Positions 2,008 through 49,140 are shown, numbered from the stretch's first letter. The stretch is 64,000 nucleotides of DNA from Candidatus Nomurabacteria bacterium (GCA_943357245.1 CALRGH010000001.1:13456-77455), one strand, 5' to 3'. The notes: a model not told the origin generated them from the letters alone. Made by a program: numbers and translations.

Positions 2008-2787
2008 ATGTCAACAATATCAATCGATCAAGTTAAAGAGCTCCGCGACCAAACTGGCGTTTCTATTATGCAATGCCGAAAAGCCCTCGAAGAAGCCGGC
2101 GGCGACATGGAAAAAGCAACGATCATCTTGAAAAAGAAATCAGGCGACATCGCAGCAAAGAAATCAGACCGCAGCGCACAAGACGGCATCATTGCGTTCA
2201 AACAAGCAGAAGGCAAAGCAGTAGCCGTAGTGCTTAACTGCGAAACAGACTTCGTTGCAAAGAATGATGAATTTATCGCGCTTGCAAATAAGATTGCGGA
2301 TATCGCGCTCGCAAGTGGCGAACAAGCAGCTCGCGACCAAGCAGTAACGTCTGTCAGTGAGCTCGTACAGAAGATTGGTGAAAATATCCAACTCGGCACT
2401 ATTACGATTGTCGAAGGTCCAGTTGTTGGTGGCTACATCCACAATCAGAAAGCAGGTGCGATTGTTGCCCTCTCTGCGGGAACTCCGGAACTTGCAAAAG
2501 ATGTCGCGATGCACGGCTCAGCAATGAAGCCTGCATTCGTCACAGGTGCTGATGTCCCCGCAGATGCTCGTGCAAAAGCGGAAGAACTCTTTAAAGAAGA
2601 AGTTGCTGCGTCCGGCAAGCCTGCGGATATTCAAGCAAAGATGCTCGAAGGAAAATTGAACACCTATTTCAAAGAACAAACACTCGTTGACCAGATGTTC
2701 ATCAAAGATCCAAGTCTCACGATTGATGCATATCTAAAGAAAAATGGAGCGTCCCTTGTTGCATACAAACCACTCAGTCTTATCTAA
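2008..2787 (+). CDS. tsf: elongation factor Ts
   Basis: The N-terminal UBA-like segment IDQVKELRDQTGVSIMQCRKALEEAGGDMEKA is typical of EF-Ts. The gene lies immediately downstream of rpsB. Confidence 0.92.
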   Translation: MSTISIDQVKELRDQTGVSIMQCRKALEEAGGDMEKATIILKKKSGDIAAKKSDRSAQDGIIAFKQAEGKAVAVVLNCETDFVAKNDEFIALANKIADIALASGEQAARDQAVTSVSELVQKIGENIQLGTITIVEGPVVGGYIHNQKAGAIVALSAGTPELAKDVAMHGSAMKPAFVTGADVPADARAKAEELFKEEVAASGKPADIQAKMLEGKLNTYFKEQTLVDQMFIKDPSLTIDAYLKKNGASLVAYKPLSLI

Positions 2788-2815
2788 ACCCGCCTTTTTG
2801 TTGTAAACTAATCTT

Positions 2816-3232
2816 ATGTACATACTCATTATCATCTTTGTCGCCCTCCTCTTGGGTAACATCATATTCATCCTCTACAAGACGACACAGGTGCGCGAAT
2901 ATCGTGCGCACGTGTTGCGCCATGAGGATTATGGCGACAAAGATCATTGGGTGTTGCATCAAGCGCGCACCATGACAAAACATGGTCACGTAATCATCAA
3001 ACATCATGCAAGCAAGTTTGTTATCTTTTTGGCAAAAAAATGGATAGCACTTGTCCATAAAGTAAACAAATATATTCGCAATAGATATCCTGAAATTGCC
3101 TATTTGATTGGTGATAAGGCACATATCAAACAGTCGAAGGATGTGGAGGCGTCGGCGTTTATGGAATCGATGAAAAACAGCAAACAAGACGCCGGGGCGC
3201 ACCGCATCGACGATACGCTGGACATCAAGTAG
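2816..3232 (+). CDS. hypothetical small membrane protein (138 aa, N-terminal TM helix, His-rich)
   Basis: Plus-strand ORF co-oriented with rpsB-tsf. It has an N-terminal hydrophobic helix ILIIIFVALLLGNIIFILY. The competing minus-strand ORF 2780-3406 has a low-complexity, junk-like translation and runs into the tRNA-upstream repeat. Confidence 0.45.
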   Translation: MYILIIIFVALLLGNIIFILYKTTQVREYRAHVLRHEDYGDKDHWVLHQARTMTKHGHVIIKHHASKFVIFLAKKWIALVHKVNKYIRNRYPEIAYLIGDKAHIKQSKDVEASAFMESMKNSKQDAGAHRIDDTLDIK

Positions 3233-3299
3233 ATTTTTGGTATAGTAGGGAGACCTTAGGGTGACTTTAAGAAGCCTTAGTGGTGAAATATCGTGTTCA

Positions 3300-3427
3300 G
3301 AAATTTTTTCACGCTTCGCGTAAAAAAACTTTCTGAACCGAATTTTGTGGGTCAAAATTATGGCCGGAAATTTTTTCACGCTTCGCGTAAAAAAACTTTC
3401 CGACACGATTTTTGTGGGTCAAAAATC
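3300..3427 (+). repeat. tandem direct duplication (67 + 61 bp) immediately upstream of tRNA-Thr; each copy contains the palindrome ACGCTTCGCGT
   Basis: GAAATTTTTTCACGCTTCGCGTAAAAAAACTTTC(T/C)GA(AC/CA)CGA(A)TTTTGTGGGTCAAAA is read twice in tandem. The second copy abuts the tRNA 5-prime end and is likely a duplicated promoter/leader. Confidence 0.8.
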
Positions 3428-3500
3428 GCCGCCTTAGCTCAGTTGGTAGAGCTACACTTTTGTAAAGTGAGGGTCCCCAGTTCGAGTCTGGGAGGCGGCT
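3428..3500 (+). tRNA. tRNA-Thr (anticodon TGT)
   Basis: 73-nt cloverleaf folded by hand, with no CCA encoded. Acceptor stem GCCGCCT/AGGCGGC. D-arm GCTC-AGTTGGTA-GAGC. Anticodon stem ACACT/AGTGA with loop TTTGTAA (U33, anticodon TGT, A37). 5-nt variable loop. T-arm CCCAG-TTCGAGT-CTGGG. Discriminator T. Confidence 0.88.
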
Positions 3501-3512
3501 CCCGAAACATAC

Positions 3513-3557: not shown

Positions 3558-4262
3558 TTACGGTAGTATCATGAAATAGTCGTCACTATTATCAGATGAA
3601 TCAAATGTTTCACTCATGCCTCCCTCTAAATAAAATTTATATTTTATATTAGAATTTCCAACATATGTTGGTTGAACAAGAACACTTTGACCATTTATAA
3701 ACTCATACGCATCACTTTGCATATTGCCACTTGAAGGAATTTTAACATCAAAACTACCATTATAACCATTACCAACATGTTGCTCTTGATAGTTTGATAG
3801 GTAATTATTATTGGAATTATTGTAAGAAAGATTTATTTTAATCCCATTCGGTCCGCCAGATGTAATATTCGAAGGATAATTGCCTTGCAAATCATACCTC
3901 TCAATTGCTATCCCTTCAAAATTTTGCAGCGGCATCGAAGCACATGATTTAAATTGAACGTGAATTGTATCTCCAAGATGATACGATTCTCCTCCGTTTG
4001 GTGAAGTTATTTGAAGTAATTTTTTGAAATTTGTTGAACAATTAAAAGACGTTGTTGCAGATGATTGAGGTTGTTGAGTTGCTGGAGGAGTTTGAGCGAA
4101 AGAATTATTATTTGTAGTTGGCGGAGTATAATTTAAATTATCTACTACTTCATTTTTCGGAGTAGAACTTTTTCCCGCAAAGTACACTACTCCGCCGACC
4201 GTCAAAACTCCGAGTATACTTAGTAAAACCACAAGTGCTACGAAACCTTTATTGTATTTCAT
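3558..4262 (-). CDS. hypothetical secreted/anchored protein, N-terminal TM anchor, N/S/G/Y/T-rich low-complexity ectodomain
   Basis: MKYNKGFVALVVLLSILGVLTVGGVVYFAG gives a signal-anchor. The remainder is low-complexity (TPPTTNNNSFAQTPPATQQPQSS, NNSNNNYLSNYQ). Confidence 0.6.
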   Translation of the reverse strand: MKYNKGFVALVVLLSILGVLTVGGVVYFAGKSSTPKNEVVDNLNYTPPTTNNNSFAQTPPATQQPQSSATTSFNCSTNFKKLLQITSPNGGESYHLGDTIHVQFKSCASMPLQNFEGIAIERYDLQGNYPSNITSGGPNGIKINLSYNNSNNNYLSNYQEQHVGNGYNGSFDVKIPSSGNMQSDAYEFINGQSVLVQPTYVGNSNIKYKFYLEGGMSETFDSSDNSDDYFMILP

Positions 4263-4343
4263 GATAGTTAAATTCTAACTTATTTACATTCAATTTACTA
4301 ACCAATAAAAACTCCTCGCTATCATTTCTAAAGATTAGGTCTT

Positions 4344-5024
4344 CTATTGAGTTTTTGTTGTTGTTTTCACCGCAGCTTCTTGTTTTGCTTTTTCTTTTGC
4401 AAGTTCAGGAAGTAGTTTTGTGAAATCTTCTAAACTCTGAAATCCTTCATAAGTTACGCCAGAAAAGACGATTGTCGGAGTGGTATCCACTCGAAACATT
4501 TGCTTGAGTGTACGTACAATAGGTGAATCCAAACTTACATCAAACGTATACACTCTGAGATTCGGAAATTTTTCTACCAAACCAGAAAGCGCATACGATT
4601 GCTTTGTACAATCATCACATTCTTCGTTGTTATAAAAATACAATATCGGTTGCAAAATATGCTTACACTTTTTGGAAAGTTCTTGAATCAATAAATATTC
4701 TTTTGATTCAAGTAATGTGTAATACTTTTTAAGCTGAATAACATCATTATTTTCAGAACCTAACTGATTTTCCATATAAGCCACTCGTTCACCAAGAGTA
4801 CCAAGCTCCTGTGAAAGAAGTGTTTCTGCACTGACGGAGTCACAAGAAGATTCTTTGAGGAGCGCAAACCGTGCTTCTGTAGAGAGAAGGTCAAGTGAAA
4901 GCGAATCTTGCAATAAGCGTAGATTTTCTACTTTTCTCACATTCAGAAAAGAACTCAAAATAAAAGCACTTATAAAAAGGACTGCAGTAATACCAAAGAC
5001 AAGAATATATTTTCCAAATTTCAT
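4344..5024 (-). CDS. membrane-anchored thioredoxin-fold protein (CxxC motif CDDC and cis-Pro TPT loop)
   Basis: N-terminal TM helix and a coiled segment. The C-terminal domain has ...FYNNEECDDCTKQ... and ...VDTTPTIVF..., the classic Trx/DsbA-like CxxC plus cis-proline arrangement. Confidence 0.55.
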   Translation of the reverse strand: MKFGKYILVFGITAVLFISAFILSSFLNVRKVENLRLLQDSLSLDLLSTEARFALLKESSCDSVSAETLLSQELGTLGERVAYMENQLGSENNDVIQLKKYYTLLESKEYLLIQELSKKCKHILQPILYFYNNEECDDCTKQSYALSGLVEKFPNLRVYTFDVSLDSPIVRTLKQMFRVDTTPTIVFSGVTYEGFQSLEDFTKLLPELAKEKAKQEAAVKTTTKTQ

Positions 5025-5046
5025 AAAATAATAAATTATCGGATAA

Positions 5047-6279
5047 TTAACGCCACGCCATCTGACGGGAGAACGCCACCTTATAAATCGCCTTCATGAT
5101 CCAGAATGGACTTACAACACTGTACACTACCACAAAGAGGATAAAGTTGTAAGAAAGGGGAAGTCGTTTTTCAACCATATAATAGCCAATCCCAATAGAA
5201 CAGAAGACAAGTGCGTATGCAAAAACAATGAGGAATATCGTTGGTGATCCGAAATAAAACAAATCAAAGTTCGGCGTAAAATACGTCGGGTGAAATCCTC
5301 CGAAATGAACCCGTGCGACAGCTTTAGTAATATACGAAATGATATTGTATATCGAGAAAAAGAATACGCCAATGACCGCAACAATAGAAATTATACTGGT
5401 CGGAAGTGTAAACCAAGAAAAATTTCCATGACTACCGAAAAGCATTTTTCGATAGTCAATAAGATTATTCAAAAACGCATAAATCCATCGTGTGCGCTGA
5501 CGAAAGAGCGTGCGGACGGTACGCGGAGGAATTGTGTACACGACGGCATCATGCACCTGATCGATCTTCATACGTGCCGCGTGCATACGAAATGCCATCT
5601 CCATATCTTCTCCTTGGTGACCGGGACGGAAATTGCCGATTTTTGCAAACACCTCACTGCGATAGAGCGGTAGCGTGCCAGGAGTAACATGAAGTCCATT
5701 AAGAATACTTAATATTTTTTTGAAAAAGACTGCCATTGTGTATTCTACTTTTTGTGCACGTTGAATCAGTGTCTCAGGATGTTCAAGTATCGCTGCCGGA
5801 ATGACTGCCATCACGGCAGGGTCAGTAAATCGCGGAAGCATTTTTTGAAATACATCCGGTTCGACACGTGAGTCAGCATCAAGACAAGCGACATACTCAC
5901 CTTTTATTTTTGTTAATCCAAGATTAAGTGCAGAAAATTTACCACCGTTTTCTTTGGTAAAAGCACAAATAGACGGATGCGTAATGTATTTTTGAACAAT
6001 CGCCCACGTACCATCAGTCGAACCATCATCGACAATGCAGATATCAAGTTTATCTTTTGGATAATCGAGTGCAAGCAGAGAAAGGATTGTCTTTTCGATA
6101 CCCTTCTCTTCATTCCAACATGGAATAATAATGCTTATAAGTGGAAAATGCGCGAGCCGCACAAGTATGTTTTTTACTATGATTGATTTGCGTTTCTCAA
6201 TAAACGTAAGGAGAAAGAAAATCTGAACATACATCGCAAGAAATATGACGACGTATATAAATATAAGTCCAGCTGACAT
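5047..6279 (-). CDS. processive family-2 glycosyltransferase (PgaC/IcaA/NodC/cellulose-synthase-like)
   Basis: GT-A core PCWNEE...DDGSTDGT...LDADSRV, then GEDMEM and the QRTRW motif, followed by multiple C-terminal TM helices. This is the signature of processive beta-glycan synthases. Confidence 0.85.
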   Translation of the reverse strand: MSAGLIFIYVVIFLAMYVQIFFLLTFIEKRKSIIVKNILVRLAHFPLISIIIPCWNEEKGIEKTILSLLALDYPKDKLDICIVDDGSTDGTWAIVQKYITHPSICAFTKENGGKFSALNLGLTKIKGEYVACLDADSRVEPDVFQKMLPRFTDPAVMAVIPAAILEHPETLIQRAQKVEYTMAVFFKKILSILNGLHVTPGTLPLYRSEVFAKIGNFRPGHQGEDMEMAFRMHAARMKIDQVHDAVVYTIPPRTVRTLFRQRTRWIYAFLNNLIDYRKMLFGSHGNFSWFTLPTSIISIVAVIGVFFFSIYNIISYITKAVARVHFGGFHPTYFTPNFDLFYFGSPTIFLIVFAYALVFCSIGIGYYMVEKRLPLSYNFILFVVVYSVVSPFWIMKAIYKVAFSRQMAWR

Positions 6280-19302: not shown

Positions 19303-19400
19303 GGAGAGACTATACAATAAAAAGTACGTTGTGTCACTAAAACAGCAAAGCAGCGCCGACGTAGTCGGCGCTGCTTTGCTGTTTTAGTTTATTGTGTGTT

Positions 19401-19430
19401 CCCTGCTACTTGCTACCAGTCCCTTGCTAC
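19401..19430 (+). repeat. 30-bp element CCCTGCTACTTGCTACCAGTCCCTTGCTAC (copy a), abutting the stop codon of the KH-domain gene
   Basis: Read directly. Near-identical copies are at 19888-19917 and 22350-22384, with an inverted partial copy at 22270-22294. Confidence 0.85.
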
Positions 19431-19762
19431 TAAATGCCTTTAAGGTCTTCCATTGCCTGATCAACTGTCGATGCACTCATACCTGCGCCACCTGGTGCAG
19501 CGGGAGGTACCAAACGTCCACCTTCTGGCTCGTTGATTTTCAAATTTACTCGAGCGTTGTTTTTCATACCAATGACACGGAGCAATGTTCGGATCGCTTT
19601 TGCGGTATTGCCTTGGCGACCGATAATCTTTCCCATATCAGCTTGATTGACGGACAAGGTAACCAATACTCCCATTTCATCTACCGTTCGATCAATTTTT
19701 ACATCATTCGGATTGTCTACTAATGCTTTCACTACGTACTCTAGAAATTGCTTGTCTTCCAT
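19430..19762 (-). CDS. KH-domain RNA-binding protein (YlqC/UPF0109-like)
   Basis: VGMKNNARVNLKI and IGRQGNTAKAIRTLL (GxxG KH loop). It sits in the conserved rpsP-KH-trmD position. Confidence 0.8.
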   Translation of the reverse strand: MEDKQFLEYVVKALVDNPNDVKIDRTVDEMGVLVTLSVNQADMGKIIGRQGNTAKAIRTLLRVIGMKNNARVNLKINEPEGGRLVPPAAPGGAGMSASTVDQAMEDLKGI

Positions 19763-19866: not shown

Positions 19867-19887
19867 ATGTGGATTATTTTTTGTTTT

Positions 19888-19917
19888 CCCTGCTACTTGC
19901 TACCAGTTCCTTGCTAC
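19888..19917 (+). repeat. 30-bp element CCCTGCTACTTGCTACCAGTTCCTTGCTAC (copy b), overlapping the rpsP stop codon
   Basis: Read directly. It overlaps the rpsP stop (CTA at 19914-19916). Confidence 0.85.
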
Positions 19918-20222
19918 TTACTCGCTTTCATCAACTTTCGTTTCTGTGTTGGTGCTTTCTTCGAAAGGACGTTGCGCTTTTTTGCGGTAAGCACTCCTTC
20001 TTGTACCAAGAAATTATGTACCGTATCTGATACTTGCGCGCCTTCTTTAATGCGCTTCAAGATTGCTTCTTTCTTAAATTCTGGTTTACCAGCATGTGGG
20101 TTATACGCACCCAAAATTTCGATAAATTTACCACTCTTTGCGGCATTTTTTGAATCGGTCAACACGACGCGGAAATGCGCTTCGTTCTTGCGGCCTATTC
20201 GTTCTAATCTGATCTTTAACAT
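19914..20222 (-). CDS. rpsP: 30S ribosomal protein S16
   Basis: MLKIRLERIGRKNEAHFRVVLTDSKNAAKSGKFIEILGAYNP matches the S16 N-terminus. Confidence 0.92.
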   Translation of the reverse strand: MLKIRLERIGRKNEAHFRVVLTDSKNAAKSGKFIEILGAYNPHAGKPEFKKEAILKRIKEGAQVSDTVHNFLVQEGVLTAKKRNVLSKKAPTQKRKLMKASK

Positions 20223-22269: not shown

Positions 22270-22384
22270 GTTGGTAGCAAGTAGCAAGGGTTTCAAAACA
22301 ATATAAACACAAGTGCAGGATTTGGCGAAGCCAAATCCTGCACTTGTGTCTTCCCTGCTACTTGCTACCAGTACCTTGCTACAA
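22270..22384. repeat. composite MITE-like unit: inverted partial copy of the 30-bp element (22270-22294), 20-bp-stem perfect hairpin (22307-22349), direct copy of the element (22350-22384)
   Basis: GTTGGTAGCAAGTAGCAAGGG (reverse complement of CCCTTGCTACTTGCTACCAAC), then ACACAAGTGCAGGATTTGGC-GAA-GCCAAATCCTGCACTTGTGT, then CTTCCCTGCTACTTGCTACCAGTACCTTGCTACA. It lies between the rnr stop and the capA start. Confidence 0.8.
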
Positions 22385-22406
22385 GCAGTATGCTACCATA
22401 CTGCTT

Positions 22407-23448: not shown

Positions 23449-23494
23449 ACAGTGTGCTCGAATTTGGCTTCGCCAAATTCGAGCACACTGTTTT
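23449..23494 (+). terminator. 20-bp perfect hairpin ACAGTGTGCTCGAATTTGGC-TTC-GCCAAATTCGAGCACACTGT followed by TTTT (capA terminator; TTTGGC/GCCAAA family)
   Basis: Read directly, 8 nt after the capA stop. Confidence 0.75.
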
Positions 23495-27864: not shown

Positions 27865-27906
27865 CCAAAAGCAGGGTTTGGCCTATAAGCCAAACCCTGC
27901 TTTTGG
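27865..27906. repeat. 18-bp-stem perfect hairpin CCAAAAGCAGGGTTTGGC-CTATAA-GCCAAACCCTGCTTTTGG (TTTGGC/GCCAAA family, same 10-bp core as 1124-1155)
   Basis: Read directly, between the SMC-like stop and the next gene. Confidence 0.8.
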
Positions 27907-30623: not shown

Positions 30624-30683
30624 TTTCGCGTTGGCCTGGGTCCCGATTTTCATCGGGGTGACACAGAGAACAATAACAAAAAA

Positions 30684-30718
30684 GGATTGGATTTGCTTCG
30701 CAAATCCAATCCTTTTTT
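30684..30718. terminator. bidirectional terminator GGATTGGATTTGC-TTC-GCAAATCCAATCC flanked by A5 and T6
   Basis: Perfect 13-bp stem. It serves the convergent genes 30263-30577 (+) and rnc (-). Confidence 0.8.
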
Positions 30719-30762
30719 GTGTGTTCACTAAACCCTAAGCCCTAAACGCTATACCCTATTTC

Positions 30763-31455
30763 CTAACTCCACTTCTTTGCCACAAGCGCAGCCTTAGCCG
30801 CTTCTTGTTCTGCCTCCTGTTTTGATTTCCCTTTTGCACTACCGAGCAATTCTTTGCCGACATAGACACCGATAGAAAATTGCTTATCGTGATCAGGACC
30901 AGATTGCGACAATACTTTGTACACCGGCGTGATGCCCATGTGTTCTTGTGCTTTTTCTTGGATCAAACTTTTTGGATCTTGCCACAATTTTTCTGCAACG
31001 ATTTGCTCGGTGAGTGGCAATAAATTTTGTGCAATAAAATCACTCGCCGCATCATAGCCGCGATCAAGATAAATCGCGCCGATAACTGCTTCAAAGGTAT
31101 TCGCAAGAATATAGTGACGCGCCTTGCCCAAATCTTTTGATTCACCGCGAGAGAGCATGAGATGCTCGTTCATATTTAATTTGCGCGCAACATCTGCGAT
31201 AGTATGTGAGTTCACAAGGGCAGCGCGATATGCGGTGAGTTCGCCTTCATTTTTCGTCGGATATTTTTTGTATAAAAACGACGTGACGACAAGTTCAAGA
31301 ACCGCATCGCCCAAAAATTCTAAGCGCTCGTTGTGGGAAAATCCAGTCTTCGGATTTTCATTGATATAGGACCGGTGCACAAATGCTTGCAAGAGTAAGT
31401 CTTTATTTGCAAAATGTACACCTATTGATTGCTCAAATGGAGTTAGATCTTTCAT
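30763..31455 (-). CDS. rnc: ribonuclease III
   Basis: RNase III signature ERLEFLGDAVLELVVTSFLY and a C-terminal dsRBD (KQEAEQEAAKAAL). Confidence 0.92.
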   Translation of the reverse strand: MKDLTPFEQSIGVHFANKDLLLQAFVHRSYINENPKTGFSHNERLEFLGDAVLELVVTSFLYKKYPTKNEGELTAYRAALVNSHTIADVARKLNMNEHLMLSRGESKDLGKARHYILANTFEAVIGAIYLDRGYDAASDFIAQNLLPLTEQIVAEKLWQDPKSLIQEKAQEHMGITPVYKVLSQSGPDHDKQFSIGVYVGKELLGSAKGKSKQEAEQEAAKAALVAKKWS

Positions 31456-31546: not shown

Positions 31547-31587
31547 GCTCGCTTTTTCCAGATACCCGGTATCTGGAAAAAGCGAGC
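31547..31587. terminator. 19-bp perfect hairpin GCTCGCTTTTTCCAGATAC-CCG-GTATCTGGAAAAAGCGAGC immediately downstream of the nusB-nudix stop
   Basis: Read directly. No clear T-run follows. Confidence 0.6.
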
Positions 31588-39640: not shown

Positions 39641-39698
39641 AAAAGCAACCGTAGTCAATTTTTCGCCATGGCGAAAAATTGACTACGGTTGCTTTTTT
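39641..39698. terminator. 25-27-bp-arm perfect palindrome centred on CCATGG followed by T6 (thrS terminator)
   Basis: AAAAGCAACCGTAGTCAATTTTTCGCC-AT-GGCGAAAAATTGACTACGGTTGCTTTT then TTTT. Confidence 0.8.
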
Positions 39699-40700: not shown

Positions 40701-42743
40701 TTATATATCAATCTCCGCTAACTTTGCATGTGTTTGGATAAATGATTTGCGAGGCGCAACATCCGAACCCATCAACATGTCAAACACTTTATTTGCTTCT
40801 TCGGCATCATCGACATTCACTTGTTTCAAAATACGTCGAGCAGGATCCATTGTTGTTTCCCATAATTCTTCTGCGTTCATTTCTCCGAGACCTTTATAGC
40901 GTTGGAGGTGGAATTTACTTGCCTTCACCTCTTTCTTTGCATCTGTTTCTTCATCAGTTACCACATCATCTCCACCCTCACTTTCGTCTGTCTCTTCGAT
41001 TTCTGCATTGTCGCCAGTAATCGCCATTTTTTCTTCATCAGTATACGCATACCACAGTTCTTTACCTCGCTTTATTTTATAAAGTGGTGGTTGCGCAATA
41101 TAAATATGTCCGGCATCAATGAGTGGTTTGAAGTGACGGTACAAGAGCGTCAAAATAAGCGTACGGATGTGTGCGCCGTCCACGTCGGCATCGGTTGCGA
41201 TAATGATTTTGTGATAACGCAATTTTGAAATATCAAACGTATCACCGATTGCGGTTCCCATCGCAATAACCAAGTTTTTAATTTGTTCAGAGGCGAGCAT
41301 TTTATCAAGACGCGCACGTTCGATATTTAGGATTTTGCCACGCAGTGGCAAAATCGCCTGCGTGCGACGATCGCGTCCCATTTTTGCCGTACCTCCAGCG
41401 GAATCTCCTTCCACAATAAAAATTTCAGATTCTTCTGCACTCTTTGAACCACAGTCTGCAAGCTTGCCCGGAAGCGTCATACCTTCAAGCGCACCTTTGC
41501 GGAGCACGGAATCCTTTGCTGCTTTTGCTGCTTTACGCGCGCGAACCGCCAAGATCACTTTGTTAATAATCATCTTTGCTTCGTCTGGATGCTCTTCGAG
41601 AAATGCTTCAAATGCTTCCCCGAAGACCGTTGTGGTTGCGCCTTGTGCTTCAGGAGAACCCAATTTCCCTTTTGTCTGTCCTTCAAATTGAATTTCACGA
41701 AGTTTTACCGAGACGACTGCGGTCAATCCTTCAAGGACATCATCGCCCGTAAATGCGCCATCAGATTCTTTGATGAAATTATTTTTTTTGCCGTAGGTAT
41801 TCAAAAGACGCGTAAGTGCTGTTTTAAAACCAATCACATGAGTACCTCCTTCTTGCGTATAAATATTGTTCGCAAATGGCAAGATGCGACAAGAAATGTC
41901 ATCGATATATTGGAGCGCAATTTCAACGCCAACATCATTCAATTCTTTGTCCACATAAAAAATAGTATCCTGTACTGTTTTTTGGTGCAGGTTTTGGTGG
42001 CGAATAAGCGATACCAATCCTCCTTCGAAATAAAAACTGTGCGATGGCGCTTCAATGCCTTGGTCTTTCAAATACACTTCATCATCAAGATTTATTTTAC
42101 CTTCGTAATTACGTGCATCGATAACCGTGATTAATAATCCTTTGACTAAATATGCTTGCTGACGCATGCGACTGACAATAATATTCCATTCAAATTCTGT
42201 TGTTGTTTTAAAAATTTCTTTATCAGGCTGGAAGGTCACAATGGTGCCGTGCAATTTCGAAGAACCGACTTTTTTGACGGCTGCTTTTTTCTTACCACAC
42301 GCATATTCTTGCATGTGCTTGCCACCATCACGATGCACTTCTACTTTTGTGTATGTGGAAAGTGCATTCACTACCGACGCACCAACGCCGTGCAAACCGC
42401 CAGAAACTTTGTAGCCGTCACCACCAAATTTACCACCGGCGTGGAGCGTCGTCATGACTGTTTCAAGTGCGGATACTTTTGTTTTGGAATGAATGTCCAC
42501 TGGAATACCGCGACCATTATCCGCAACGCGCACATGATTGTTTGGTAGGAGTGCAATCTCAACACGGTTTGCAAATCCGCCCATCGCTTCATCGCGAGAG
42601 TTATCAAAAATTTCCCATATCAAATGATGCAAGCCTTCAGAGCCTGTTCCTCCAATATACATACCGGGACGTTTTCGTACCGGTTCGAGTCCTTCAAGGA
42701 CTGAAATATCTTCTGCGGAATATGATCCTTTCTTATCTACCAT
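40701..42743 (-). CDS. gyrB: DNA gyrase subunit B (type IIA topoisomerase ATPase subunit)
   Basis: GHKL ATPase motifs EGLHHLIWEIFDNSRDEAMGG and GLHGVGASVVNALS. Toprim EGDSAGG. C-terminal tail. 680 aa. ParE cannot be excluded, but gyrB is more likely. Confidence 0.85.
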   Translation of the reverse strand: MVDKKGSYSAEDISVLEGLEPVRKRPGMYIGGTGSEGLHHLIWEIFDNSRDEAMGGFANRVEIALLPNNHVRVADNGRGIPVDIHSKTKVSALETVMTTLHAGGKFGGDGYKVSGGLHGVGASVVNALSTYTKVEVHRDGGKHMQEYACGKKKAAVKKVGSSKLHGTIVTFQPDKEIFKTTTEFEWNIIVSRMRQQAYLVKGLLITVIDARNYEGKINLDDEVYLKDQGIEAPSHSFYFEGGLVSLIRHQNLHQKTVQDTIFYVDKELNDVGVEIALQYIDDISCRILPFANNIYTQEGGTHVIGFKTALTRLLNTYGKKNNFIKESDGAFTGDDVLEGLTAVVSVKLREIQFEGQTKGKLGSPEAQGATTTVFGEAFEAFLEEHPDEAKMIINKVILAVRARKAAKAAKDSVLRKGALEGMTLPGKLADCGSKSAEESEIFIVEGDSAGGTAKMGRDRRTQAILPLRGKILNIERARLDKMLASEQIKNLVIAMGTAIGDTFDISKLRYHKIIIATDADVDGAHIRTLILTLLYRHFKPLIDAGHIYIAQPPLYKIKRGKELWYAYTDEEKMAITGDNAEIEETDESEGGDDVVTDEETDAKKEVKASKFHLQRYKGLGEMNAEELWETTMDPARRILKQVNVDDAEEANKVFDMLMGSDVAPRKSFIQTHAKLAEIDI

Positions 42744-42840
42744 AAATATTTTTTATACCTCTATTTTAGCATATTTTGATGTAAAAACCTAGCATTTTTT
42801 ACACAAAAAAAGCCTTATTTATAAGGCTTTTTTTGTGTAA

Positions 42841-45800
42841 TTAAGGTGTATCTGATGGTGGAGTATCAGTTGGAGGAGTTTGCTCTGCTGGAGGTGTCTC
42901 GCTTGGTGGATTCTCATCAGTTGGAGGGATATCGCTCGATGGGGTGTCTTGTGGAGGAGTGCCGGTTGGAGGAGTTTCTGATGGAGGCACTTCTTCGGTT
43001 GGCGGTGTCTCTCCTCCTCCAGATGGCGGAAGTGTCTGTCCTGCGTTTTCAATAAGCGCACGAAGTTGGTCTTTATTGATACACACATCTTCAACACACA
43101 ATTCTTTTGTCGTAATTTTATCGGAGAAAATATTTACCAGTCCATTCGTTGTAGATGCGAGCCATGCGCGAAGTGCACCAACCAGAGAATTATCTTCATT
43201 CGTAAGGTCTGCAATATTTGTAATCTTTATATCAAGTTGTTTTACTGCTGCCATCAAAATACCATTCACCGACACTTGATCAATCACATTGCCCCACATG
43301 AACGCCGGATTAACTTCGTCAGCGATATAGCCGATGCGTACTTTTGCAAGCGGAGAATCAGTGCCGTATCCTTCCACTTCATTTCGGTATCGGAATGTAT
43401 GTAATGGTGCATCCAAAATTAACTGCAACGCATTTGTATAATCAGTATAGTCTTCGATATTTTGTTTTGTATCACGAGTAGATGTTTGTGTACCGATAAC
43501 GGTACCTGCCGTATCATTTGCATTTGTTGGTGCTGCAGTATGGATGCGCATATTGCCCGAGTTGTCTTGCCACACGTATCCTGCGGTACCAGATTTTTTC
43601 TGGAAGTTGATCGACCCTGCACCAGTGTTTGTCGCATTTGTATTTCTACCAAGGGTAATATAATTTCCAGCTGCACCATCTCCTAGATCACGATTAGCAC
43701 CATTTAAATGTCCCTCTGCGGTAACACGCCATTTTTCAGTAAGTGTCTGGAGTGTTGTTCCTGATGCCCCTGCATCAGATGTTAGAAATGCAATAGCTCC
43801 TCCGACAGCATTCCCTGTTGCCTTACCACTAGCAAGATTAAGACCTGCGCCGTATTGGTTTGTTCCTGATCCACCACTTGCATTAATAATTATACCTTGA
43901 GGACTCGCCGATGTCACTCCGTTACCAAAGTATGCATCAATTGCAGTTCCACTTCCTGTACTTACCACCCATTGATCGTTCGCAGTTGCAACCGCAGTAG
44001 TACCACTACCAATAACAATCGATCGAGTAATACTATTAGAAGAAACATCTGCGCGGTCACCAATAAGAATATTATTACCACCCGTGGTAATAGTTGCACC
44101 TGCACTGTATCCAAGAAACGTATTTCCTGTAGCAGTTGTGTTCGCAACACCAGCTCCTTTACCAAAAAATGAGTTTGTTCCCCCTGTACTTACAAGTCCT
44201 GCATTCATACCAACAAATGTATTATCACCTGCTGTTGTGTTCGCATCTCCAGCAAGATAGCCGATAAAGGTATTATTGTTTCCTTCTGTGTTCAACCGAC
44301 CAGCACTTTTGCCGAAAAATGCATTGCCAGTACCAGTACTGTTTGTTTTACCCGCAATATCCCCAACAAATGTATTGCCGTCTGCGGTTGTATTTCCCAT
44401 CCCCGCACCCCCCCCAATAAATACATTACTATCTCCTGTTGTATTAACAGAACCCGCTGTGCTTCCTATAAATATATTTTCCGTACCTGTTGTATTAACC
44501 TCTCCAGCTCTATATCCAATAGCAGTATTATATGATGCAGTGGTAATAGCAGCTCCTGCTGATTTCCCAAGCAGTATATTACTTACACCCGTAGTGATTG
44601 AGTCACCAGTATTATCTCCAAATAAAATATTATCAACACCACCACCTGCGCCATTAAGCGCTGCACCTGCGCCAATAGTCCCTGTAAACACGTTATTATA
44701 AGCGTCTGCAGTCACATCTCCACTACCACTTACACCAACAGCCCCCCAGCTAACACCACTATATACTTGAAATTCACCATCATCTGTATTATAAATAAGC
44801 TCTCCTGCTACTGGAGTTACAATATCGTCACGTCTTGTCGTATTCATACGTGGCAGAAGCACTCCGGAAGTCGATGAAGTAATATCAAGCACTGCTTCTG
44901 GGGATGCTATACCGATGCCGAGTGACTCTGCTCCATCATCCCAAAAAAAGTTACCGTTTTTCGCGATTGTCGTTCCATTAGAAAAGAGTACAGAACCTGT
45001 GTCAAGGGATGGTAACGTTAATTTTCCATTGAATGTATTCCAATCAGTGGACGTGAGAAATCCTTTTGCACCAGTTGCCGCCGCTTGGCCGTTTGTATAA
45101 TCAATAGCAATAAGACCACTTGTTGCATTAAAGTCAGCAGCGGTAAAAGTTGCCGCACCTTTTGTGGAGCCGTCAGCTGCGGCATTCGTAATTGAAATAG
45201 TACCCGAACTATTAGAAAGTGGCGAAGAGAATGTAAGCGAACTCTGCTTACTGTTAAACGTCGTCCAATCGGTTGCTGAAAGATAGCCGGAGACACTTCC
45301 TGTTGCTTGTGAAATTGTCATGATGCCAGTCGAGTTGCTATATGAAAGTGGTATGCTACCTGCGACACTAATAGCACTTCGTGCACGAGCATCAGTGAAA
45401 TACTGATTCGAACCTTCGGTAATATTCGATGTGGTGAGTGTCACCGAACCAGTTGAACCATTGACACTCGTAACGGATGCACCGTTTAGAATTTCCACCC
45501 AATTGGCAAGAACTGTCGCATCGGTGTCTGCAAGTACGTATGTTTTGCTTTGATCAGTACGAATAGCAAGGTCGCCTTGAGTTGCAGAAAGTGCGAGCAT
45601 GGCGACTTGTGATGCGACAACGTACGTATCTGAAAATGAAAGCGACGCAAGTTGAGATGTCGGCACTTTGCCGTTGCCATCAAGTGTCGCAATCCCATCC
45701 GCAACACCTTTCTGTAAACTAATTCGCGCATCGGCACGACTATTTGTATAGTAGAGATTCGTACCTTCATCAATTTCAGTCGTTGAGAGATTAATCGCGC

Positions 45801-47124
45801 CAACTTCGCCGTTAACGGAAAGCACCGAATCTGTAGGGGTAAGTATTTGGACCCAGTTGGAGACGTTTGAATAATCAACAGCTGAGAGTACATAGGTTGT
45901 GTTCGTGTCAGTACGAATTGCAAGATCCCCAATACCAGCGCTTGAAAGCGCAAGCATCGCGGCTTGTGATGCAACGACGAAGATATCACTAATTGCAAGT
46001 GATGAAAGTTGCGACATTGGCACTTTACCGCTCGAATCAAGTGTTGCAACACCACTTACCGCGCCCATGTAGGAAGTCGGTACAAAATCAAGCGTCTGCC
46101 ACGAAAGCGTACCTGATCCGTTGTTTTTTAAATACGATGATGACGCGCCTTGTGATGACGGAAACGAGTACACGACATTATTTAATTTCACAATATTTCC
46201 ACTTGAATCTACTTGAAATTTATCCCCAGAACCAACTGTGAAAAGCGATGCAGGTGACGTATCTCCAACACCAACATATCCTGTCGAAGAAATGCGCATT
46301 CGTTCATTTGCATTTGCATCACCACCAGTGAAAAACTTGAGTGATTCTGTTGCTCCGGCAGTTCCTATTACCAAATCAGAATCACTTGTATATAAATATG
46401 CAGTGTGTGGACCTCCATAAATAAGCGATAAATCATTGTACCCAGAACTATTGATACCAAGATCAACGTAATATGAATCATCATCACCATCATCAGCGGT
46501 TGCAACGAAATCAGACGATGCACTGTCGCCGTCATTCAAGTTTTGAATGTTTACTTGCAAATAACTATCCGTGTTGCCAGAAAAATTTCCCACCACGTTT
46601 GGAAAAATCGTACCGCCGCCGGCTGCGAATGATCGCGCTGCAGTGACATTGCCTTCACTATCAATATTGAGCTTGCTTGCGCCGTCAACTTGAAAATCGG
46701 CGAGGTAATGCGTGCCGGAACCTGTCGCACCTTCGGTGACATTAACGAGTAAACCAATGTACGCAGCGGTGCCAGATTGTGAGACTGTCGGATGAATATA
46801 GTGACCGTACGCAGAACCGGAACTTCCGGATACCGTAGACGTAAACGTTTTTATTCCTGCAAAACTTTGTGCAGATGTATTAACAAGACCTGTGTCTGTA
46901 ATTGACGCATCAGGAATTTCAACAAAACATTCTGCGTCTCCGGGCGCACATGTTGGATCTAATGTTTCATTTTGAAGATAGGGAGATGTAGGCGGTGTTG
47001 CAAAAGCAACAATTCCTCCAGAAAACGCAACAAGAAAAAGCACCGATAAAATTAGTGTTCGATTTGTCCCTTGTTTTATTTTTTTGAGAACAGATTCTTT
47101 AATTGTGCGAATGAGTCTACGCAC
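42841..47124 (-). CDS. giant secreted tail-fibre-like surface protein (1427 aa): signal anchor, duplicated phage-tail-fibre repeats, NxTxG repeat array, peptidase-S74 intramolecular chaperone domain, Pro/Thr-rich C-terminal tail
   Basis: N-terminal anchor TLILSVLFLVAFSGGIVAFA. Two roughly 95-aa internal copies (ATLDSSGKVPMSQLSSLAISDIFVVASQAAMLALS...NWVQI and ATLDGNGKVPTSQLASLSFSDTYVVASQVAMLALS...NWVEI). More than 12 tandem units of the NTTGxxNxFxGxxAG type. C-terminal STRDTKQNIEDY...HTFRYRNE...IGYIADEV matches the S74 chaperone motifs (SDxRLKxNI, GFIAQEV). The final 60 aa are PPT/PPS repeats. Confidence 0.8.
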   Translation of the reverse strand: MRRLIRTIKESVLKKIKQGTNRTLILSVLFLVAFSGGIVAFATPPTSPYLQNETLDPTCAPGDAECFVEIPDASITDTGLVNTSAQSFAGIKTFTSTVSGSSGSAYGHYIHPTVSQSGTAAYIGLLVNVTEGATGSGTHYLADFQVDGASKLNIDSEGNVTAARSFAAGGGTIFPNVVGNFSGNTDSYLQVNIQNLNDGDSASSDFVATADDGDDDSYYVDLGINSSGYNDLSLIYGGPHTAYLYTSDSDLVIGTAGATESLKFFTGGDANANERMRISSTGYVGVGDTSPASLFTVGSGDKFQVDSSGNIVKLNNVVYSFPSSQGASSSYLKNNGSGTLSWQTLDFVPTSYMGAVSGVATLDSSGKVPMSQLSSLAISDIFVVASQAAMLALSSAGIGDLAIRTDTNTTYVLSAVDYSNVSNWVQILTPTDSVLSVNGEVGAINLSTTEIDEGTNLYYTNSRADARISLQKGVADGIATLDGNGKVPTSQLASLSFSDTYVVASQVAMLALSATQGDLAIRTDQSKTYVLADTDATVLANWVEILNGASVTSVNGSTGSVTLTTSNITEGSNQYFTDARARSAISVAGSIPLSYSNSTGIMTISQATGSVSGYLSATDWTTFNSKQSSLTFSSPLSNSSGTISITNAAADGSTKGAATFTAADFNATSGLIAIDYTNGQAAATGAKGFLTSTDWNTFNGKLTLPSLDTGSVLFSNGTTIAKNGNFFWDDGAESLGIGIASPEAVLDITSSTSGVLLPRMNTTRRDDIVTPVAGELIYNTDDGEFQVYSGVSWGAVGVSGSGDVTADAYNNVFTGTIGAGAALNGAGGGVDNILFGDNTGDSITTGVSNILLGKSAGAAITTASYNTAIGYRAGEVNTTGTENIFIGSTAGSVNTTGDSNVFIGGGAGMGNTTADGNTFVGDIAGKTNSTGTGNAFFGKSAGRLNTEGNNNTFIGYLAGDANTTAGDNTFVGMNAGLVSTGGTNSFFGKGAGVANTTATGNTFLGYSAGATITTGGNNILIGDRADVSSNSITRSIVIGSGTTAVATANDQWVVSTGSGTAIDAYFGNGVTSASPQGIIINASGGSGTNQYGAGLNLASGKATGNAVGGAIAFLTSDAGASGTTLQTLTEKWRVTAEGHLNGANRDLGDGAAGNYITLGRNTNATNTGAGSINFQKKSGTAGYVWQDNSGNMRIHTAAPTNANDTAGTVIGTQTSTRDTKQNIEDYTDYTNALQLILDAPLHTFRYRNEVEGYGTDSPLAKVRIGYIADEVNPAFMWGNVIDQVSVNGILMAAVKQLDIKITNIADLTNEDNSLVGALRAWLASTTNGLVNIFSDKITTKELCVEDVCINKDQLRALIENAGQTLPPSGGGETPPTEEVPPSETPPTGTPPQDTPSSDIPPTDENPPSETPPAEQTPPTDTPPSDTP

Positions 47125-47195
47125 TTAAAAAGTATACCACTTTTTAAGTGCTAAAAAGGTATAAAGATGTTGATAACGTTGGCAAGGATAGTTAT

Positions 47196-47226
47196 CAAGT
47201 TTATAAAGTTATAAGGTTATAAAGTT
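47196..47226. repeat. left inverted repeat (CAAGTTTATAAAGTTATAAGGTTATAAAGTT) of the four-helix-bundle gene cassette
   Basis: Its partner at 47564-47593 reads CAAGTTATAAAGTTTGTAAAGTTATAAAGG in reverse complement. Confidence 0.7.
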
Positions 47227-47561
47227 TTAATAAATCCTGAGATTATCCTAGATATTTCAGTTGAAAGAATTTCAAGTTTAGCAGCTTGGTCTTTTCGAAA
47301 ATATCGCAACTCAACACCGAGAATAAGCATTGAACGGACTTCCCCACATGACCCCTTTGCAATATATAAAAAATTCTTAAATTCTTTATTTGTTTGACGT
47401 TCAAATCCTTCCGCAATATTGTTCATAATAGAAACAGATGCTCGTTCAATCTGATTTTTAAAAGAGAAATCTTTGCAAACTGAAACATCCTTATAAATCT
47501 GTAACGTTAATTCTTTTGCTTTTTGCCATGCAATAATCTCTTCAAACCTCGTAATTTTCAT
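47217..47561 (-). CDS. four-helix-bundle protein of the 23S-rRNA-intervening-sequence / DGR-Avd-like family
   Basis: 114 aa: EEIIAWQKAKELTLQIYK...NQIERASVSIMNNIAEGFERQTNKEFKNFLYIAKGSCGEVRSMLILG is the characteristic pattern of this family. Confidence 0.8.
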   Translation of the reverse strand: MKITRFEEIIAWQKAKELTLQIYKDVSVCKDFSFKNQIERASVSIMNNIAEGFERQTNKEFKNFLYIAKGSCGEVRSMLILGVELRYFRKDQAAKLEILSTEISRIISGFIKTL

Positions 47562-47563
47562 GT

Positions 47564-47593
47564 CCTTTATAACTTTACAAACTTTATAACTTG
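47564..47593. repeat. right inverted repeat of the four-helix-bundle gene cassette
   Basis: See the entry for 47196-47226. Confidence 0.7.
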
Positions 47594-47599
47594 ATGAAC

Positions 47600-48739
47600 T
47601 TAGCGGACAGTGGCCTTAACCACGTCCGCTGTTTCCTGCTCTAATTTTTTATGAATCGCATTCACTTCCACATCCGTCAGCGTGCGATCAAGTGCACGGT
47701 ACGTGATTCGATATGCATAACTTTTTTTACCAGCACCAAATTTGTCTGCATTTTCGTATTCATCGACGAGCGCCATTTCTTCTGCCATATCACCAACCAC
47801 ATCGCGCACCACGTCAAAATAATTATTCGGCATAAATATTGCGCTGTCGACAATGAAAGAAATGTCGCGCACGATTGCTGGGTACTTACTTACCTCTTTA
47901 AACTTAGTGCCGAGTTTTAATTGCTTTTTTACACGTTCGTCATCACTCCAAAGCAATCGGATATCCGGAAGTTCGGTGCTGATGATTGCTAATCGTTCAA
48001 GTCCAAGTCCAAACGCCCAACCCGTCCATTTTGAGGAATCAACACCAAGTTTATCAAGCACACTTCCCTTCACGACACCTGCACCATTAACTTCAACCCA
48101 CGCACCATTAATTTCCACCTCCATTTCAAGTGACGGATCCGTATACGGAAACGTATCGGGATTAAAACGATATTTAATATCATTACCGAACACTGCCTTT
48201 GCCGTATCTTCCAATACTTTTTCTAAATCAGCGCGCGTGATTTCTCCTTGTTCTTTTGGTATTAAATACCAACCATCGAGCTGATGAAAGACATTCATGT
48301 GACGGCGATCTATTTCATCTTTGCGATACACTTTGCCAAATGCGAACGCGCCAACAGGCTCGTTGTTTGCGATGCGTGCCTTGATTTTTTCATCGTGCAA
48401 ATAGTAATACCACATCACCGTCATTTGCGTACGCAAAATATGATTGTCATCTGCATAGTACGTATCAGATTTTGAACGTGCCGGATGATCCATCGGAAAA
48501 TCAAATAAATCAAATCCAATGTCAGTTGAAATAATTTGTGGCACTTCGATAGTATCAAATGTTGTAAATGCGGGTAGCGCCAAAATTCGCTTCACCATCT
48601 CTCCAATCGGACTGCCGTCTGTCCGCGACAGATCCGGCATGTCCAAATATCGCTTCATGCGAAGCGCTTCTGCGTCTGTCCGCTTGTCCAATTCCGCGAG
48701 TAATCGTGTTTCTTCAGCTGTATCTACCTTAATTTCCAT
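47600..48739 (-). CDS. pheS: phenylalanyl-tRNA synthetase alpha-type catalytic domain fused to a C-terminal FDX-ACB anticodon-binding domain (monomeric, mitochondrial-type architecture)
   Basis: Class II motifs HPARS...FRNE-like and GWAFGLGLERLAIISTELPDIRL. The C-terminal roughly 100 aa (SKYPAIVRDISFIVDSAIF...KKSYAYRITYRALDRTLTDVEVNAIHKKL) match the FDX-ACB domain that normally sits at the PheT C-terminus. The long PheS N-terminal coiled coil is absent. The start is taken at the ATG at 48739 (the ORF-track start at 48748 is TTG). Confidence 0.75.
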   Translation of the reverse strand: MEIKVDTAEETRLLAELDKRTDAEALRMKRYLDMPDLSRTDGSPIGEMVKRILALPAFTTFDTIEVPQIISTDIGFDLFDFPMDHPARSKSDTYYADDNHILRTQMTVMWYYYLHDEKIKARIANNEPVGAFAFGKVYRKDEIDRRHMNVFHQLDGWYLIPKEQGEITRADLEKVLEDTAKAVFGNDIKYRFNPDTFPYTDPSLEMEVEINGAWVEVNGAGVVKGSVLDKLGVDSSKWTGWAFGLGLERLAIISTELPDIRLLWSDDERVKKQLKLGTKFKEVSKYPAIVRDISFIVDSAIFMPNNYFDVVRDVVGDMAEEMALVDEYENADKFGAGKKSYAYRITYRALDRTLTDVEVNAIHKKLEQETADVVKATVR

Positions 48740-48777
48740 ATTGGGCAACTATAGCAAAAATATGAGGTATTTTCCAC

Positions 48778-48812
48778 TCTGTGTCACCCTGAATTTATTT
48801 CAGGGTCCAGGC
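48778..48812. repeat. left terminal inverted repeat / hairpin of the GIY-YIG cassette (TCTGTGTCACCCTGAATTTATTTCAGGGTCCAGGC)
   Basis: The reverse complement of 49106-49140 is CTTGTGTCATCCTGAATTTATTTCAGGATCCAGGC. There are three mismatches, two of which are compensatory within the internal hairpin. Confidence 0.8.
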
Positions 48813-49096
48813 TAAATTTCTAAGTCCTCCCACTGAGGATTATTTGCTTCAATAAAATTTAATTTCCATTTTCTATGCCAATTTTTTAATTGTTTTTCTC
48901 GGACAATAGCAATTTGCACATCATTTGTCTCTTCAAAATAGACAAGTTTGTGCACATTATATTTTTCAGTAAATCCTTCGACAAGATTATTTTTATGTTC
49001 AGATATTCTTCGCCGTAAATTATTTGTTACGCCAATATAAATAGTGCCATTTCTATCTGTTGCTAAAATATATACATAATATTTCTTGTATAGCAT
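48812..49096 (-). CDS. GIY-YIG nuclease-family protein (94 aa)
   Basis: YVYILATDRNGTIYIGVTNNLRRRISEH...KLVYFE is the GIY-YIG motif set (GIY..YIG..R..E). Confidence 0.8.
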   Translation of the reverse strand: MLYKKYYVYILATDRNGTIYIGVTNNLRRRISEHKNNLVEGFTEKYNVHKLVYFEETNDVQIAIVREKQLKNWHRKWKLNFIEANNPQWEDLEI

Positions 49097-49105
49097 AAGT
49101 ATTCC

Positions 49106-49140
49106 GCCTGGATCCTGAAATAAATTCAGGATGACACAAG
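49106..49140. repeat. right terminal inverted repeat / hairpin of the GIY-YIG cassette
   Basis: See the entry for 48778-48812. Confidence 0.8.

Follow-up and report, generated by a model that had tools for sequence, protein, structure and literature searches.

What is a lone gene for a small four-helix-bundle protein, framed by inverted repeats (IRs), doing directly behind pheS, with neither a ribosomal RNA gene nor a reverse transcriptase (RT) in sight? The question arose from a 64,000-nt stretch of Candidatus Nomurabacteria bacterium (GCA_943357245.1 CALRGH010000001.1:13456-77455), referred to as a whole as the window, in which an earlier note had singled out the gene of a 114-aa protein and assigned it to the family that includes Avd, the accessory protein of diversity-generating retroelements (DGRs). 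The lack of an rRNA or RT context, remarked on in the same note, was confirmed by an Rfam scan and an RT-motif scan of the window. The host chromosome is of the Patescibacteria type. A PF05635 open reading frame (ORF) bracketed by two inverted arrays of short repeat units is an IVS-type cassette, which is named an intervening sequence (IVS) when it resides inside a 23S rRNA gene. With somewhat better than even confidence, we regard the present locus as a free-standing cassette of this type, placed at the 3' end of the pheS transcription unit and acting at the RNA level.

The proposed membership of the protein in the Avd-type four-helix-bundle/IVS family, for which the earlier note had named a profile search as a check, was borne out. 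The PF05635 profile (23S_rRNA_IVP) covered the entire protein (E 5.9e-33, 113.7 bits, cut-off 33.8), which also matched the NCBIfam profile TIGR02436, 'four helix bundle protein' (E 3.6e-32, 110.8 bits, cut-off 24); the bAvd-like profile PF22296 gave no match at E <= 0.01, and PHROG gave a weak match to 'Avd protein of DGR' (E 9e-4). An AlphaFold2 (AF2) monomer model based on 22 homologs consisted of four helices with a pLDDT of 96. Foldseek searches with this model returned 2GSC and 2RLD with template-modelling (TM) scores of 0.90 and 0.85, and Bordetella phage Avd (4DWL/8UB7) with a TM score of 0.79 at 12% identity. The closest solved structures by sequence were likewise Xanthomonas XCC0516 (2GSC, E 1.4e-10) and Bacteroides BT_0352 (2RLD); both entries contain five chains, and the Xanthomonas protein was reported as a homopentamer. 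The 114-aa protein is Avd-like in fold and, by sequence, a canonical IVS protein. The cassette is single-copy in the 64 kb, as tblastn found no second copy of the gene there, and a PADLOC search for known defence systems gave no match for it. A homology search with the protein brought up a very large family; of the 8000 candidates to which scoring was limited, nearly all were significant.

The arms of the cassette IR (47190-47214 and 47567-47591) are 25 nt long, 352 nt apart and 92% complementary; a longer, 31-nt version is 77% complementary. They are composed of 8-nt units of the ATAAAGTT type, as described previously, and read, on the sense strand, CAAGTT-ATAAAGTT-TGTAAAGTT-ATAAAGG in the upstream and CCTTATAA-CTTTATAA-ACTTGATAACT in the downstream arm. 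The 5' array (sense strand GTTCATCAAGTT-ATAAAGTT-TGTAAAGTT-ATAAAGGAC) comprises three [A/C]AAGT units and a degenerate one, and the 3' array (CCTTATAA-CTTTATAA-ACTTGATAACTATCC) comprises reverse-complement units. With up to two mismatches, the pattern TTATAAAGTTATAA occurs seven times in 64 kb, each time at the cassette (1.0 expected), a count reached in 0/100 shuffles. When long-range IRs were defined by arms more than 150 nt apart, at least 25 nt long and at least 85% complementary, the window contained only the cassette IR and that of a nearby GIY-YIG gene. In two homologous loci encoding an identical protein (L001, L003), the upstream spacer measures 71 nt and holds about seven units, compared with 38 nt and three to four units here. 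When 47180-47610 was folded as RNA, a terminal stem made of the two arrays appeared in the minimum-free-energy and in the centroid structure alike, enclosing the whole ORF and the AAGGA/ATG region. An Rfam scan at gathering threshold matched the arrays to no known RNA family and reported a single tRNA for the window. As in an IVS element, terminal IRs form a predicted stem around the ORF, and tandem repeats with strain-variable copy number stand just upstream of the ATG; the site, with pheS on one side and another protein-coding gene on the other, is not an rRNA helix.

To place this layout in the family, a close subfamily of 80 loci (relatives 58-73% identical) was drawn from species-representative genomes of Patescibacteria, Bacteroidota, Omnitrophota, Bdellovibrionota, Ignavibacteria and other phyla; in total, about 95 relatives were inspected for a gene with arrays. 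Nearly all 80 loci have tandem N(2-4)-[A/C]AAGT-Y units directly upstream of the ATG and reverse-complement units directly after the stop codon. Homologous loci have 3-13 upstream units, with unit numbers overall ranging from 3 to more than 13 and usually 3-5 per arm; the core-to-core spacing in the close subfamily is 7, 8 or 9 nt. Across 76 loci, [A/C]AAGT reaches 3.84 per 80 nt upstream (background 0.24) and ACTT[T/G] 3.30 per 80 nt downstream (background 0.22), with cores in the opposite orientation at background level. RNAduplex on 70-nt flanks was too permissive, assigning -21 kcal/mol to random gene-internal pairs and -27.6 kcal/mol to cassettes, and was replaced by an ungapped IR score with a control distribution (826 control pairs). 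The best such score exceeded the 99th percentile of the control in 56 of 77 cassettes; the median arm was 20 nt at 91% identity.

Thirteen further, divergent genes, which are either 34-39% identical or belong to a second clade that was sampled separately, keep this layout but have other units; most of them carry arrays on both sides, two on one side only. The units are CGTGAAA / GTGAAAA in L040b, L178 and L181, GTGAATA in L179 (more than 15 downstream copies), GGTTAAA in L180 and L182, AATTTAGA in L182b, GGAATAT in L068b, ACGTTGA in L170 and L171, AAGCTAA and CTCATAA in L172, and TCAAAAT in L049b. Paralogs within one genome carry differing units (L040, L068, L049, L172, L182). Unit sequence differs between protein clades and unit number between strains, and the purine-rich arm is always the 5' one. 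A gene with inverted arrays is shown here to be the layout common to most of the about 95 relatives. The absence of the IR units elsewhere had been named in advance as a reason to abandon the idea of a cassette; the result was the opposite, because repeats of the same kind surround most homologues examined. This family-wide architecture appears under-described and known so far piecemeal: a literature search of incomplete coverage for accounts of such arrays at PF05635 genes in general yielded the Coxiella heptamers only.

Two further arrangements were seen in some of the loci. Within 3 kb of the cassette, eight loci (L012, L014, L017, L024, L030, L031, L056, L059) contain gene-less hairpins, in which a forward AAAGT array is followed 20-30 nt later by a reverse array; no gene-less arrays occur in the 64-kb window. 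In a complete Tenuifilaceae genome (L182, 99-1848), two different PF05635 genes with different units bracket a 2-hydroxyacid dehydrogenase gene, a bracketing of a housekeeping gene that mirrors the GIY-YIG and PF05635 cassettes around pheS.

The genomic context of the homologues is equally regular. In 71/74 loci the closest ORF upstream runs in the direction of the cassette gene (p = 7e-18), and in 62/73 so does the closest one downstream (p = 9e-10), with gaps to the flanking genes of mostly 30-90 nt, scarcely longer than the arrays. All six second-clade loci have this co-oriented layout (6/6; e.g. BKACE-IVP-KDD and serA-like-IVP-DUF1015). The neighbours are diverse, unrelated housekeeping genes, whose 147 proteins fall into 108 clusters. 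Sites recur only at wzm|wzt, at pheS and at a PrgI-family gene, and there is no conserved partner gene. One cassette (L029) is located between tRNA-Val and tRNA-Met, and none of the 20 loci with unclear neighbours was located in rRNA. A free-standing, co-oriented slot between two host genes is the usual context of the subfamily; the statement in the earlier note that such proteins are typically found in rRNA IVSs or beside RTs does not hold for these loci, of which 2/80 lie in DGRs. In rRNA genes of the candidate phyla radiation (CPR), ORF-carrying non-intron insertions encode 23S_rRNA_IVP and GIY-YIG proteins (PMC11270868), the same two families that bracket pheS here. A phage origin of the cassette was considered and rejected, as 2.9 million viral contigs gave only three matches, all at ~38% identity.

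The 23S rRNA IVS of Coxiella is closed by a terminal stem of 28 bp; right before the ATG of S23p it has GACAGAT heptamers, in two or three copies depending on the strain, and the cuts made by RNase III fall within the stem, at the first of these repeats (PMC4990558). Together with the co-orientation data, these experiments make read-through transcription, stem formation and RNase III processing the most economical model. The cassette would lack a promoter of its own and be transcribed by read-through from pheS. In the transcript, the purine-rich 5' array would pair with the pyrimidine-rich 3' array to a roughly 25-bp, A/U-rich stem, which would loop out the ORF and cover the ribosome-binding region. 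By analogy to the IVSs of Coxiella, Leptospira and Salmonella, for which such cleavage has been demonstrated, host RNase III would be expected to cut the stem, and the protein, if pentameric like Avd, may bind it, alone or besides RNase III. In either case, an insertion in an operon, a tRNA cluster or an rRNA gene could become tolerable, and the protein's expression could be controlled.

Several results weigh against this model. The fold of the whole cassette (47180-47610) is not unusually stable (z = -1.65). Selection on a sense-strand RNA stem was not demonstrable: mismatches between the arms are of the G-U type in 36 and of the A-C type in 37 cases, showing no bias towards RNA pairing, and the duplex energies of sense and antisense strands are alike (37 vs 36 loci). 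The arms barely beat unit-permuted arms (mean z 0.49, Wilcoxon p = 0.017), with no locus significant alone. Given these weak or negative pairing tests, both arms seem to have been built from a shared pool of units and do not look like a carefully maintained stem, and a plain RNase III stem needs no 7-9-nt periodicity. The rRNA IVS may moreover be a degenerate special case and not a good model, since the Coxiella ORF is thought to be untranslated whereas the ORF in the window is under strong purifying selection.

The history of the locus could be followed through its relatives. The cassette has long resided at this site and is subject to strong purifying selection: compared with an 89% identical ortholog at the same locus, the synonymous divergence (dS) is about 1.1 and the ratio of nonsynonymous to synonymous divergence (dN/dS) 0.067. 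Loci encoding 100%- and 89%-identical proteins share the arrangement of pheS, cassette and a giant gene (that of the 1427-aa protein in the window), and cassette proteins of 73-89% identity are encoded directly downstream of a pheS (L173-176, L177, L010); in L177 (77%) and L010 (73%), this pheS is canonical and pheT lies on the other side of the cassette. All close relatives (L001-L009, L173-176) have the cassette. Near the pheS genes of 71 metagenomic relatives (60-75% identical), neither the cassette nor the GIY-YIG gene was found (0/71), and the spacers of these distant relatives are not alignable. In 24 of the 71, gyrB comes next after pheS and has the same orientation, with a closest gap of 112 nt. 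As gyrB lies beyond the giant gene in the window and is adjacent to pheS in many relatives, the cassette and the giant gene are lineage-specific additions to a variable spacer. In relatives such as L100, L127 and L151, the pheS-gyrB spacer spans 9 to 1050 nt and contains unrelated small ORFs; a coiled-coil ORF of about 80-90 aa (ELTKEHFDKVV...LHLS) recurs in these spacers.

Among the other explanations, a role of the arrays as cognate protein-binding sites rather than as an RNase III stem fares best, though we consider it rather doubtful. In the DGR ribonucleoprotein, all five protomers of Avd contact an imperfect 11-bp stem-loop with flipped-out bases (bioRxiv 10.1101/2023.10.23.563531), and it is this contact that suggests the second, non-exclusive reading of the arrays as the binding site of the protein itself. 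Each protomer of a pentameric ring would bind one 7-9-nt unit, or flipped-out bases of the stem; the ligand would be the protein's own transcript or single-stranded DNA, in the form of (AUAAAGUU)n or of paired arrays, and the outcome autoregulation or a stable ribonucleoprotein. The 7-9-nt periodicity with usually 3-5 units per arm would be accounted for, as would arms that behave as pools of units, free of G-U bias, instead of as collinear complements. Co-evolution of unit sequence and protein clade would be expected, and the unit type does track the clade and not the host, with differing units in paralogs of one genome and an AAAGT core kept across phyla together with a 58-73% identical protein; this tracking is equally explained, however, if the cassette is passed on as a whole, gene and arrays alike. 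The gene-less array hairpins near some cassettes, and AAAGT arrays flanking a true bAvd gene in a DGR, are also in line with a binding site, whereas no gene-less arrays accompany the cassette in the window. A range from 3 to more than 13 units fits poorly with a fixed stoichiometry, and binding of such repeats by PF05635 proteins is argued by analogy. In a wider form, which we put forward tentatively, PF05635 proteins and inverted 7-9-nt arrays would constitute a cognate protein-nucleic acid module across phyla, with a pentamer reading its own transcript and with the rRNA IVSs and the Avd contact in DGRs as specialised offshoots.

That the cassette is instead a non-autonomous mobile element at the DNA level, its arrays being terminal IRs or hairpin recombination sites and its ORF a cargo or helper of a mover enzyme encoded elsewhere, seems unlikely to us. 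The earlier note had called the cassette and its GIY-YIG counterpart selfish-looking, and part of this impression stands: the termini are inverted, many unrelated sites are occupied, proteins of 58-73% identity are found in different phyla, the 71 pheS relatives have no cassette, and eight loci contain gene-less hairpins of a forward and then a reverse array; IVSs have also been proposed earlier to be remnants of transposition (PMC4990558). What does not agree with it is the behaviour of the locus. None of the hallmarks of a DNA transposon or a miniature inverted-repeat transposable element (MITE) is seen, as the cassette encodes no transposase, no direct repeat that could be a target-site duplication is visible outside the arms, and there is one copy in 64 kb. 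The element has stayed at the same site in all close relatives, stably over the divergence given above and with its ORF under strong purifying selection. Furthermore, a co-orientation of 71:3 is unexpected for random insertion of an element with symmetric ends, and the cassette is nearly absent from viral contigs.

The connection to DGRs was followed up separately. Besides chance YADD/YIDD motifs in pheS and gyrB, the window contains no ORF of at least 200 aa with an RT motif, and neither a list of direct repeats of at least 45 nt nor self-BLAST revealed a pair of template repeat (TR) and variable repeat (VR) with adenine-confined mismatches; the search for an RT and a TR/VR pair that had been recommended for the genome thus came out negative for these 64 kb. 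A DGR in the window is rejected on these three scans, and so is the 1427-aa protein as a DGR target, as it has internal repeats only and a TR copy occurs nowhere in the window. The adenine-bias scan by self-BLAST recovers both real DGRs among the 80 loci (2/80, ~2.5%, linked within 3 kb), whose PF05635 proteins are 62-64% identical to that of the window. In L075, 37/39 mismatches between TR and the 195-nt VR fall on TR adenines, the RT ORF (PF00078) is found at 3764-4966, and the order is VR target, PF05635 gene with AAAGT arrays, TR and RT, so that the PF05635 gene fills the canonical avd slot. In L031, where 23/24 mismatches fall on TR adenines, the interval from VR to TR contains a separate bAvd gene (PF22296, 2.4e-22) with AAAGT-type arrays on its flanks. 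The same locus (4870-5700) has 12 tandem AACTTTC units preceding the bAvd gene, a gene-less hairpin of forward and reverse AAAGT arrays after it, just upstream of the TR, and a separate PF05635 cassette upstream of the target gene. The subfamily can be DGR-associated, but is not in this window. A DGR accessory protein working in trans, with RT, template repeat and target elsewhere in the genome, is very improbable: its Avd-type fold, the weak PHROG match, and the relatives in L075 and L031 with the same AAAGT arrays inside true DGRs stand against the absence of any RT-motif ORF or adenine-biased repeat in the 47 kb and 16 kb that the window covers to either side, the failure of PF22296 to match, 78/80 homologous loci without a DGR within 3 kb, the separate bAvd of the L031 DGR, and the fact that DGR components are normally clustered (PMC10053308).

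The features of the locus and of the remaining window are collected in Table 1. pheS, the cassette, the 1427-aa gene and the GIY-YIG gene are all encoded on the minus strand. The position of the cassette directly upstream of the tail-fibre-like gene on the same strand, and an IR-bounded GIY-YIG unit on the other side of pheS, are as the earlier note had described them.

Table 1. Coordinates of the cassette, its neighbours and other features of the window
Feature	Position	Strand	Remarks
5' array	47562..47599	(-)	Entire 38-nt spacer from pheS stop to ATG; 5' IR arm
114-aa four-helix-bundle protein gene	47217..47561	(-)	PF05635 / TIGR02436; IVS-protein family, Avd fold
3' array	47186..47216	(-)	31 nt directly after TAA stop; 3' IR arm
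pheS	47600..48748	(-)	Upstream host gene, 38 nt from cassette ORF; cassette starts right after its stop
1427-aa surface/tail-fibre-like protein	42841..47124	(-)	92 nt downstream; not part of cassette
Perfect 13-bp hairpin, 5-nt loop	47121..47151		Between cassette and 1427-aa gene; outside cassette
gyrB	40701-42743		Beyond 1427-aa gene
GIY-YIG gene	48812-49096	(-)	94 aa; PF01541, E 3.8e-17
GIY-YIG IR-bounded cassette	48780..49138	(-)	38-nt arms 48780-48817 and 49101-49138, 89% complementary
RNase III-like gene (rnc)	30763..31455	(-)	230-aa ORF with ERLEFLGD signature; assigned by motif only
Palindromes	39641-39696, 19336-19388, 30676-30720, 42799-42840, 27865-27906, 31547-31587, 22307-22349, 23449-23491		

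The window pheS encodes a 382-aa form, in which the class-II catalytic core is fused to a C-terminal FDX-ACB domain, a domain normally carried by PheT. Its identity to the canonical, 233-aa pheS of L177, where a separate pheT is present, is as low as 36%, and no pheT adjoins it in the window. In the 1427-aa protein, residues 1216-1275 match Peptidase_S74; no similarity to other cassette neighbours was found beyond its own orthologs. Each arm of the GIY-YIG IR is itself a small hairpin (CCTGAATTTATTTCAGG), and in the L001 ortholog of this unit the loop bases are altered in concert in both arms. The C-terminal region of the rnc-like ORF resembles a double-stranded RNA-binding domain. The eight palindromes are perfect or near-perfect, 20-28 bp long with loops of 0-4 nt, and located at gene ends, with stems far longer than those of ordinary intrinsic terminators. 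A 50-nt sequence with internal CTTGCTAC-type units is present three times (19392-19441, 19879-19928, 22344-22393; 80-86% identity), two copies directly following one of the long palindromes. Two tandem 67-nt repeats (3277-3410, 79% identical) directly precede tRNA-Thr (3428-3502) and lie inside or overlap an ORF at 2780-3406 (-).

The instance in the window is ordinary: the family is very large, and its genes usually stand in just such a context. Among small proteins still lacking an explanation, the PF05635 'IVS' proteins rank, to our knowledge, with the commonest, and a function is known only for Avd in DGRs; the origin of rRNA intervening sequences has been an open question since about 1990. 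A periodic, clade-specific IR frame and the embedding in operons provide this protein family with a testable nucleic-acid partner, and link rRNA IVSs, DGRs and free-standing genes, which were so far treated separately. Should the arrays prove to be cognate binding sites, a large family of unexplained function would gain a defined ligand. For the window itself, a false lead is removed: it contains no DGR, nor is the 1427-aa protein a target of diversification.

Compared with known systems, the trp RNA-binding attenuation protein (TRAP) resembles the cassette by analogy only, as a ring-shaped homo-oligomer with spaced short repeats in a 5' leader by the start codon; there is no homology, and the repeats in the window also occur, inverted, downstream of the gene. 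Repetitive extragenic palindromic (REP) elements with their associated tyrosine transposases (RAYT) likewise have a single gene between inverted copies of a short repeat, and gene-less hairpins are found nearby in some genomes; the window protein is, however, a 114-aa helical bundle without HUH/Y1 motifs, has no gene-less copies of its repeats in the window, and is flanked by tandem 7-9-nt units and not by 20-40-nt palindromes. Avd (bAvd, PF22296; 4DWL, 8UB7) differs by its low sequence identity of 12%, the lack of a PF22296 match and of RT, TR and VR in 64 kb, and the 78/80 loci that are DGR-free, but shares the four-helix-bundle fold (TM 0.79); the closest solved homologs of the window protein crystallised with five chains per entry, the Xanthomonas one being reported as a homopentamer, Avd binds an imperfect RNA stem-loop, and a few close relatives of the window protein reside in real DGRs. 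From the 23S rRNA IVSs of Coxiella burnetii (helix 45), Leptospira, Xanthomonas and Brucella, the cassette is set apart by its location in the spacer after pheS instead of an rRNA gene and, with regard to Coxiella, by 8-nt units with an AAAGT core in place of GACAGAT heptamers and by an ORF with a dN/dS of 0.07 in place of a decaying, probably untranslated one. With these IVSs it has in common an ORF of the same family inside terminal IRs that fold to a 25-28-bp stem, tandem repeats of strain-variable copy number upstream of the ATG, an orientation along the host transcript, and an RNase III encoded by the host.

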